Assembly: GCA_964016885.1 (NCBI GenBank)
Contig: OZ024741.1
Location: forward strand, 212,412,001 to 212,476,000
From: Eledone cirrhosa
Taxonomy: Eukaryota
Direction of reading: 5' to 3'
Length of the DNA stretch: 64,000 bases
In this document: in pieces, positions 5,031 to 7,309 of the stretch
Numbering within the stretch: position 1 is the first letter of the stretch
How the letters are laid out: the number at the start of each line of letters is the position of its first letter
The notes under the pieces: model-generated
Databases searched by the model: none
What the model was told of the DNA's origin: nothing
The model's input: only the letters and a program-made list of their open reading frames with translations
Translations under genes and position numbers: made by a program

Positions 5031-7309
5031 AGTATAGACATAGAATATTCGAAAATATTCTGTATGTTTATAATAAACATTTTGAAGACCTAATCGCTAT
5101 AGAATAGAATACGTCACGTATTACAATTAGATTCTCGATAAAAGCAAGGGAAGTAATCTACGCGTTTCATTCTTGTTAGAATTCATCAGGACTACATATC
5201 CAGTGCTTTTATCGAGAATGACACAGCTAGAGACTTATAGAATACTTAGCTGTGTACTGGAACTGGTTTGAAAGAGCGGTTGCCGGTCCGGCAGAAATTA
5301 GAAATTGGAATAAATGCTCTGAAATAGCGATATATATGTGAGTATAGACATAGAATATTCGAAAATATTCTGTATGTTTATAATAAACATTTTGAAGACC
5401 TAATCGCTATAGAATAGAATACGTCACGTATTACAATTAGATTCTCGATAAAAGCAAGGGAAGTAATCTACGCGTTTCATTCTTGTTAGAATTCATCAGG
5501 ACTACATATCCAGTGCTTTTATCGAGAATGACACAGCTAGAGACTTATAGAATACTTAGCTGTGTACTGGAACTGGTTTGAAAGAGCGGTTGCCGGTCCG
5601 GCAGAAATTAGAAATTGGAATAAATGCTCTGAAATAGCGATATATATGTGAGTATAGACATAGAATATTCGAAAATATTCTGTATGTTTATAATAAACAT
5701 TTTGAAGACCTAATCGCTATAGAATAGAATACGTCACGTATTACAATTAGATTCTCGATAAAAGCAAGGGAAGTAATCTACGCGTTTCATTCTTGTTAGA
5801 ATTCATCAGGACTACATATCCAGTGCTTTTATCGAGAATGACACAGCTAGAGACTTATAGAATACTTAGCTGTGTACTGGAACTGGTTTGAAAGAGCGGT
5901 TGCCGGTCCGGCAGAAATTAGAAATTGGAATAAATGCTCTGAAATAGCGATATATATGTGAGTATAGACATAGAATATTCGAAAATATTCTGTATGTTTA
6001 TAATAAACATTTTGAAGACCTAATCGCTATAGAATAGAATACGTCACGTATTACAATTAGATTCTCGATAAAAGCAAGGGAAGTAATCTACGCGTTTCAT
6101 TCTTGTTAGAATTCATCAGGACTACATATCCAGTGCTTTTATCGAGAATGACACAGCTAGAGACTTATAGAATACTTAGCTGTGTACTGGAACTGGTTTG
6201 AAAGAGCGGTTGCCGGTCCGGCAGAAATTAGAAATTGGAATAAATGCTCTTACGTGACGTATTCTATTCTATAGCGATTAGGTCTTCAAAATGTTTATTA
6301 TAAACATACAGAATATTTTCGAATATTCTATGTCTATACTCACATATATATCGCTATTTCAGAGCATTTATTCCAATTTCTAATTTCTGCCGGACCGGCA
6401 ACCGCTCTTTCAAACCAGTTCCAGTACACAGCTAAGTATTCTATAAGTCTCTAGCTGTGTCATTCTCGATAAAAGCACTGGATATGTAGTCCTGATGAAT
6501 TCTAACAAGAATGAAACGCGTAGATTACTTCCCTTGCTTTTATCGAGAATCTAATTGTAATACGTGACGTATTCTATTCTATAGCGATTAGGTCTTCAAA
6601 ATGTTTATTATAAACATACAGAATATTTTCGAATATTCTATGTCTATACTCACATATATATCGCTATTTCAGAGCATTTATTCCAATTTCTAATTTCTGC
6701 CGGACCGGCAACCGCTCTTTCAAACCAGTTCCAGTACACAGCTAAGTATTCTATAAGTCTCTAGCTGTGTCATTCTCGATAAAAGCACTGGATATGTAGT
6801 CCTGATGAATTCTAACAAGAATGAAACGCGTAGATTACTTCCCTTGCTTTTATCGAGAATCTAATTGTAATACGTGACGTATTCTATTCTATAGCGATTA
6901 GGTCTTCAAAATGTTTATTATAAACATACAGAATATTTTCGAATATTCTATGTCTATACTCACATATATATCGCTATTTCAGAGCATTTATTCCAATTTC
7001 TAATTTCTGCCGGACCGGCAACCGCTCTTTCAAACCAGTTCCAGTACACAGCTAAGTATTCTATAAGTCTCTAGCTGTGTCATTCTCGATAAAAGCACTG
7101 GATATGTAGTCCTGATGAATTCTAACAAGAATGAAACGCGTAGATTACTTCCCTTGCTTTTATCGAGAATCTAATTGTAATACGTGACGTATTCTATTCT
7201 ATAGCGATTAGGTCTTCAAAATGTTTATTATAAACATACAGAATATTTTCGAATATTCTATGTCTATACTCACATATATATCGCTATTTCAGAGCATTTA
7301 TTCCAATTT
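5031..7309. mobile_element. Retrozyme-like tandem array, 310-bp unit: ~3.9 units followed by ~3.4 inverted units
   Basis: Exact 310-bp period (5031/5341/5651/5961). Orientation switches at 6250/6251. One hammerhead per unit, no ORF, TA-rich flanks. Confidence 0.85.
6486..6528 (+). ncRNA. Type I minimal hammerhead of the 310-bp unit (also 6796-6838, 7106-7148 on plus; 5153-5195, 5463-5505, 5773-5815, 6083-6125 on minus)
   Basis: gtagtc-CTGATGA-attct/aaca/agaat-GAAA-cgcg-TA-gattac. Palindromic stem III ACGCGU, GUA cleavage triplet. Stem I is extended by ATTCTCGATAAAAGCA/TGCTTTTATCGAGAAT. Confidence 0.9.

Follow-up and report, generated by a model that had tools for sequence, protein, structure and literature searches.

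Positions 5031-7309 of the DNA analysed here (64,000 nt of contig OZ024741.1 from Eledone cirrhosa, hereafter the window) consist of hammerhead units of 310 nt, all identical and arranged in two arms within a TA microsatellite, and this array is probably a non-autonomous retrozyme that was inserted recently. We lean, with modest confidence, towards the reading that the enzyme of a Penelope-like element (PLE) copied it from the two strands of a single cut, with one circular RNA as the probable template. The class of element is already known, and the gain is mechanistic rather than a new kind of element. Reverse transcription on a circle into tandem cDNA was proposed in the Discussion of PMC7229834, with PLEs named as a strong candidate only, while a preprint bases the PLE origin on co-occurrence and pseudo-LTR homology and lets tandems grow locally by crossover (bioRxiv 10.64898/2026.07.22.740005). 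At the present locus the footprint of PLE integration sits on the retrozyme array itself, and the proposed step thereby becomes testable. Since more than one unit is present on both arms, the tandem arose at or before insertion.

Layout and predicted ribozyme fold of the array

The 5' ends of both arms meet at the centre and their 3' ends point outward into (TA)n (Table 1). Each arm comprises more than three units (TRF copy numbers are 4.0 for the left and 3.4 for the right arm) and crosses three to four cut sites. An earlier note, made from the letters of the window, had described seven hammerheads, four on the minus and three on the plus strand, as well as identical units. Both descriptions were borne out: seven type I cores lie at the positions given in Table 1, and unit copies at 310-nt offset are identical without a break across either arm. 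Position +127 is C in four of four copies of each arm and thus in 8/8 overall. The unit has a GC content of 34.5%, and its longest stop-free frame around the circle extends over 59 aa. Because both flanks are (TA)n, a target-site duplication, which in retrozymes comprises more than 4 bp when present, is unreadable at this array.

Table 1. Features of the 310-nt array and its flanks; unit positions are numbered from +1, the first base 3' of the predicted cut.
Feature	Position	Strand	Description
Left arm	5031..6250	-	1220 nt, unit +149 (inner, 5') to +128 (outer, 3'), about 3.9-4.0 units, 4 hammerheads
Right arm	6251..7309	+	1059 nt, unit +39 (inner, 5') to +167 (outer, 3'), 3.4 units, 3 hammerheads
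Head-to-head (5'-5') junction	6250..6251	.	microhomology 0 nt, no inserted bases
Cut-to-cut monomer (predicted circle)	6523..6832	+	310 nt
Hammerhead and flanking helices	6462..6550	+	16-bp helix 6462-6477 / 6535-6550, stem I 6 bp, core 6492-6522, palindromic helix III
Hammerhead core	6802..6832	+	type I motif
Hammerhead core	7112..7142	+	type I motif
Hammerhead core	6089..6119	-	type I motif
Hammerhead core	5779..5809	-	type I motif
Hammerhead core	5469..5499	-	type I motif
Hammerhead core	5159..5189	-	type I motif
PLE-like tail	7271..7309	+	39-nt extension, unit +129 to +167, right outer end only
Left target flank, (TA)n-rich	4777..5030	.	
Right target flank, (TA)n-rich	7310..7362	.	

The predicted cut falls after GUA at 6522. 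Stem I (mean pair probability 0.99) is followed by a 3-bp step and then by the 16-bp helix that the earlier note had seen as its extension, which is predicted at a pair probability of 0.96; stem II comprises 5 bp (0.91). In this predicted fold, stem I and the 16-bp helix keep the two ends of the monomer paired. The three further hairpins named in the note reach mean probabilities of 0.88, 0.98 and 0.54. Folding the unit as a circle, which the note had proposed, gave a minimum free energy of -67.2 kcal/mol vs -46.8 +/- 3.9 kcal/mol in dinucleotide shuffles (n=150, z -5.2) with 57% of the bases paired, in agreement with its description of a highly self-paired monomer. At the gathering score, Rfam delivered no match anywhere in the window, and below this threshold the HH9 hammerhead was matched with 23 bits and an E value of 0.0032 (gathering score 52).

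Helix III comprises one or two pairs with a palindromic cap. Most metazoan type I hammerheads are described to have such a helix III and to cleave poorly as single motifs and better as tandem pairs (PMC4209133). In a trimmed dimer of the 310-nt unit, the paired double hammerhead is the minimum free energy structure (P 0.9-0.98), whereas the double-hammerhead helix has P 0.0 in full-length arm transcripts under nested folding. From the latter value we infer that the motifs fold locally, while double pairing would be a pseudoknot outside the model of the program. Since the double-hammerhead helix is at P 0.0 in the full arms and likewise in the trimmed dimer of an unrelated 472-nt family of the window (see below), the self-cutting step would depend on context. 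Self-cleavage of the 310-nt unit is plausible on the basis of these folds.

The 310-nt element fits animal non-LTR retrozymes on every DNA-level feature that could be tested: units within about 150-450 bp, an intact type I hammerhead in consecutive units, no coding capacity, a GC content below 50% and a self-paired monomer. The same combination of 150-450 bp tandem units with one type I hammerhead each, low GC content (<50%), missing coding frame and self-paired monomer, together with PLEs in the same genome, is reported for coral, mussel and the axolotl/newt satellite (PMC7229834) and for vertebrates (bioRxiv 10.64898/2026.07.22.740005). The weak palindromic helix III is shared with axolotl HHR_Amex1 (PMC7229834). 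Unlike these retrozymes, however, the 310-nt array has two opposed arms and a one-sided tail in (TA)n, and none of 14 repeat ends of the window connects it by sequence to a PLE pseudo-LTR. The word 'inverted' is absent from the main text of PMC7229834 and occurs in the available text of bioRxiv 10.64898/2026.07.22.740005 only in a reference title, while 'tail' does not occur in that text at all. No description of inverted, tailed retrozyme arrays was found in the available texts of these two papers and PMC11722881 or by a wider literature search, with supplements and most subscription papers outside its scope.

Two other classes of hammerhead-bearing elements were considered and ruled out. A plant-type LTR retrozyme, with two LTRs, type III hammerheads and a unique core, disagrees with the type I motif and the all-tandem units. 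A viroid-like replicon with ribozymes in both polarities disagrees with the finding that the unit carries hammerheads in a single polarity, those on the minus strand being part of the inverted arm (other ribozyme classes were checked through Rfam only).

The 310-nt family in other sequence data

In a search of sequencing runs, at least half of the sampled unit words were present in 20 of the 24 runs listed, which represent 17 studies and 18 organism codes; no RNA run is among the listed unit-holding runs, a result that has no bearing on expression. One of the data sets other than the window's assembly, run X1, comprises 526 variant contigs of the unit. Of these, 72 are less than 95% alike, and several run into (AT)n. 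Thus, the 310-nt unit is an abundant, multi-copy mobile family. The joint between tandem units has a depth of 3984 in X1, contig depth being no copy number. At +127, T accounts for 337,432 of 341,297 of the summed contig depth in X1, whereas C is found in all array copies. Since this minority allele is present in all eight copies, both arms come from one source template.

Among six loose ends of X1 contigs listed (at least 21 more exist), 3' ends enter (AT)n at +139 (eight contigs) and at +170 (one contig), the former position being ambiguous since the unit's own TA run starts at about +131. In one contig the 5' side is joined at +30 directly to (AT)n, so that some insertions are not two-armed. 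The other three ends among the six listed carry unit-like letters.

In runs X4 and X5, whose organism codes differ, the unit is represented by one contig of 340 nt, at a depth of 26 and 34, respectively. That of X5 is closed on itself and differs from the window at one position (compared at 6737-7046 and 6201-6300). We considered the closed 340-nt contigs of X4 and X5 as proof of a circular RNA and rejected them, since collapse of a tandem array leads to an identical contig. The occurrence of the unit in X4, X5 and 18 organism codes may reflect trace DNA of a repeat with very high copy number, a single species that was labelled in several ways or an abundant RNA common to them. None of the 26 contig pieces listed, out of 292 from X1-X4, spans the junction 6250/6251, and the insertion may be private. 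In the Hi-C runs X21 and X22, a sample of about 1-2% of each contained no matching reads, and exact-pattern scans for the unit found none in metagenome contigs and none in viral contigs.

Proposed copying from both strands and the alternatives

Counted along successive units, the left arm covers 149-1368 and the right arm 39-1097, and in none of five register shifts is either arm contained in the other (0/5). The outer (3') ends lie 128 and 167 nt past the cut site, 39 nt apart and both in (TA)n. Thus the ends of the arms, which the earlier note took to be arbitrary throughout, are of two kinds: the inner (5') ends at +149 and +39 do look arbitrary, whereas the outer ends coincide with preferred sites (+128 and +167).

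This geometry resembles that of PLE insertions, for which inverted copies truncated on their 5' side, a one-ended tail of 30-40 bp and a preference for (TA)n or microsatellites are given as hallmarks (PMC8557442). The array likewise has an inverted partner at its 5' end, a one-sided 39-nt tail and (TA)n flanks on both sides, although, with (TA)n making up 17% of the window, its landing in (TA)n is weak evidence by itself. Complex tandem or inverted insertions of endonuclease-bearing PLEs (PMC8557442), including anole Poseidon (PMC11167929), share with it the AT-rich or (TA)n target and a hammerhead upstream of the 3' end as well. In contrast to them, the array has no ORF and both of its arms are multimers of a 310-nt unit. 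Purified anole PLE protein, a predicted dimer, cleaves both strands of AT-rich DNA and extends them, and it uses two internal RNA start sites with the interval between them forming the tail (PMC11167929). The 310-nt locus links the inverted copy and the tail of PLEs to this two-strand, two-start-site activity in vitro. Twin or dual priming of L1 is similar in that two primings from two nicked strands lead to an inverted arm whose internal junction shows little microhomology, if any (PMC2837659). However, the 310-nt array lacks poly(A) and a readable target-site duplication, its starts are fixed 39 nt apart and its arms overlap over several units, whereas L1 arms cover separate parts of one RNA.

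Based on these likenesses, the array could have formed as follows. Transcription of tandem units would yield RNA that is cut at its hammerheads, most likely in pairs because of the short palindromic helix III of the predicted fold. The ends of the monomer, paired via stem I and the 16-bp helix, would then be ligated into a circle by analogy with the retrozymes of PMC7229834. A PLE protein with reverse transcriptase (RT) and GIY-YIG domains, the enzyme that we infer, would nick both (TA)n strands and prime at internal sites near +128-139 and +167-170, where the ends are observed. Each cDNA would circle the template three to four times, the number given by the observed arm lengths, and would stop at random. 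Blunt joining of the cDNA ends and fill-in might finally be the route to the 5'-5' junction and the 39-nt tail on one side that are present at the locus. A more specific form of this model holds that a PLE RT dimer carried out two rolling-circle reverse transcriptions at the same time on one 310-nt circle, both of them target-primed, with one per cut (TA)n strand and each with its own fixed start. We regard this as a tentative proposal, quite possible yet short of probable. If true, dual rolling-circle priming on one circle would explain the retrozyme tandems, the inverted 5' copy of PLEs and the one-sided tail together, and would constitute direct genomic evidence of rolling-circle retrotransposition in animals. 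The 310-nt RNA with its two mapped candidate start sites provides a substrate for tests of rolling-circle target-primed reverse transcription.

The earlier note had likewise proposed rolling-circle copying of a 310-nt circular RNA, and such copying is plausible. Retrozyme identity and a template longer than one cut monomer stand, given more than three units per arm, identical units and one allele in 8/8 copies, while the circle is only the likelier template. Since each arm exceeds one unit and spans cut sites, a cut linear monomer is excluded, and the template was either a circle or an uncut multimer. The latter leads to a serious rival, namely that the same two-sided priming by a PLE took place on uncut read-through transcripts of a homogeneous array, with one or two RNAs involved; on balance we consider it unlikely. 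Uncut RNA is the main substrate of the anole PLE in vitro (PMC11167929), and cleavage was reported for one of nine Xenopus dimers, the other eight showing none (bioRxiv 10.64898/2026.07.22.740005); both results favour a linear template. The double-hammerhead pairing of 0.0 in full-arm folds speaks for it as well, as do the units of the 472-nt array, which vary at a few positions. However, a prior array of perfect homogeneity with the same minority allele would be needed, while the family in X1 is diverse (72/526 contigs <95% alike). In addition, strong self-pairing of the monomer keeps its two ends close to each other, as in retrozymes shown to be circular (PMC7229834), which speaks against a linear template.

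For the second arm, the earlier note had suggested fold-back second-strand synthesis, in which a single rolling-circle cDNA bends back and copies itself into an inverted arm. All alleles are common to both arms, as such self-copying would have it, and in the 472-nt array the short arm is contained in the long one. Other loci of the window have near-perfect palindromic centres (46602-47060, 14516-14625) and are equally explained by fold-back. At the 310-nt locus, however, fold-back is largely refuted and in our view very improbable: the arms are non-contained at all five register shifts, the junction shows 0 nt of microhomology, neither cDNA 3' end matches the site needed for self-priming at this junction, and each arm stops at its own preferred site. 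Fold-back would need the later gain of one unit and, in addition, a chance stop at the tail site. The pairs at 14150-14467 and 20110-20399 are likewise non-contained. We attach just as little weight to local amplification, the route put forward in bioRxiv 10.64898/2026.07.22.740005, by which a short PLE end fragment would have been inserted and then expanded in place through unequal crossover. While whole units may indeed be gained or lost later, more than one unit spanning a cut site is needed per arm before crossover can act, and as both arms exceed this length, crossover cannot have grown them from a sub-unit fragment. Both arms would also have to expand independently and free of mutations, whereas the tandem joint is family-wide, as seen from its depth in X1 (3984) and the closed 340-nt contigs of X4 and X5. 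Least probable of all, and by our estimate highly improbable, is an assembly artefact, be it a satellite that was collapsed or a long read that is a fold-back chimera. In its favour, unit identity is perfect, the number of units in identical repeats is hard to assemble, and the junction is absent from the 26 listed of 292 contig pieces of X1-X4. However, a read chimera would mirror the flanks, while the flanks differ here and the arms end at different preferred sites. Furthermore, a like geometry is found in 15/16 pairs of unrelated families in the window.

Penelope-like elements and other inverted pairs of the window

A relaxed scan and self-BLAST revealed that the window is dense with PLE-type insertions. 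PLE calls rest on motifs, namely the catalytic YxDD-type and DKG motifs of the RT, GIY-YIG and a CxCX5C or CX4CxxC linker, read against PMC8557442; Pfam gave no match to the RT frames of the window. A protein search with one PLE RT frame led to 20 matches, of which 19 are unnamed and the named one is an Octopus protein with 41% identity over 35% of the query. The PLE at 21092-26129 comprises RT (DKG, YLDD) and GIY-YIG frames, a CX4CxxC linker, inverted ends and a 39-nt tail. Its short end lies at an internal TA run, like that of the 310-nt unit, and it is a candidate helper type. A canonical hammerhead core was looked for in this element and none was found. Frames with the CxCX5C linker of Hydra-type PLEs (PMC8557442) are located at 16170-19416, 26209-29848, 44270-44836 and 45115-45801, and the first two of these possess a terminal 3' repeat with a hammerhead and end at +44-46 or +132-135. 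The Hydra-type ends of the window carry a long-helix-II hammerhead, whereas the 310-nt unit has the canonical metazoan type.

A fragment of a PLE endonuclease, truncated on its 5' side, lies at 4245-4676, 350 bp left of the array (its match to Pfam GIY-YIG, with E 2e-4, narrowly misses the cut-off), and a further copy of its 3' end is found at 33647-33951. This fragment and 13 other repeat ends of the window were compared with the 310-nt unit as candidate pseudo-LTR relatives and rejected, since no similarity exceeded that of shuffles. The array as an autonomous PLE was rejected as well: no frame of the unit exceeds 59 aa, and the GIY-YIG fragment is separated from it by (TA)n and has an unrelated 3' end.

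The window contains 20 local inverted pairs. Four were set aside because one or both of their sides have no (TA)n within 260 nt, and 16 were kept. A one-sided tail of 39-106 nt was detected in 15 of these 16 (TA)n-flanked pairs, with 709-1037 as the exception without a tail. One-sidedness of the extension arises partly by construction, while the family-fixed tail lengths and the combination of a short with a long end are informative. Tail lengths are fixed within families at 79-80 nt (three times), 86-92 nt (six times) and 39-40 nt (three times). In nearly all pairs a short end is found together with a long one, for which hand arithmetic at even odds per arm gives 17 in 65,536; for the first 8/9 pairs, 0.02 was obtained. 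The tailed pairs include PLEs with RT and GIY-YIG reading frames and a second hammerhead array. Near-perfect palindromic centres of several short pairs, equally explained by fold-back, speak against one mechanism for all pairs.

This second hammerhead array (61371-63469) is built of 472-nt units unrelated to the 310-nt unit and comprises four minus motifs and a short arm in opposite orientation, in which a fifth cut site lies at 63150. Its outer ends at +256 and +312-316 are both in (TA)n, and its junction shows 3 nt of microhomology. Folded as a circle, the 472-nt unit reaches z -9.3 (30 shuffles). A 615-nt tandem and inverted array in (TA)n at 38401-40772 has a one-sided extension of about 106 nt; neither a hammerhead core nor an Rfam ribozyme was found in it, and its circle fold is not unusual (z -1.7 and -1.3, 15 shuffles).

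Short head-to-head PLE end pieces that bear hammerheads lie in (TA)n at 709-1037, 14150-14467, 20110-20399, 20462-20728, 30068-30549, 46602-47060 and 57882-58302. Their arms are 99-100% identical at the five loci measured, and the tail comprises about 86-98 nt on one side, except at 709-1037. A 190-bp element without a visible hammerhead is present three times (14516-14705, 37119-37309, 51926-52114) as a 110-bp palindrome with a 79-80-nt one-sided tail in (TA)n, and the threefold occurrence of the same palindrome centre suggests that the hairpin itself is the mobile unit. Another palindrome, of 473 bp, lies in (TA)n at 55854-56365; its tail is one-sided and 40 nt long, and a single-arm relative is located at 20847-21034. 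A 544-nt partial tandem at 51023-51882 contains hammerhead-like cores at 51090 and 51634, while a 31-bp minisatellite at 9306-9623 carries the CTGATGA half core in most units, and a separate, canonical-looking hammerhead follows at 10077 (10077-10145). Finally, an assembly gap of 200 N at 33988-34187 is flanked by an inverted duplication (34188-34813 / 35375-36022).
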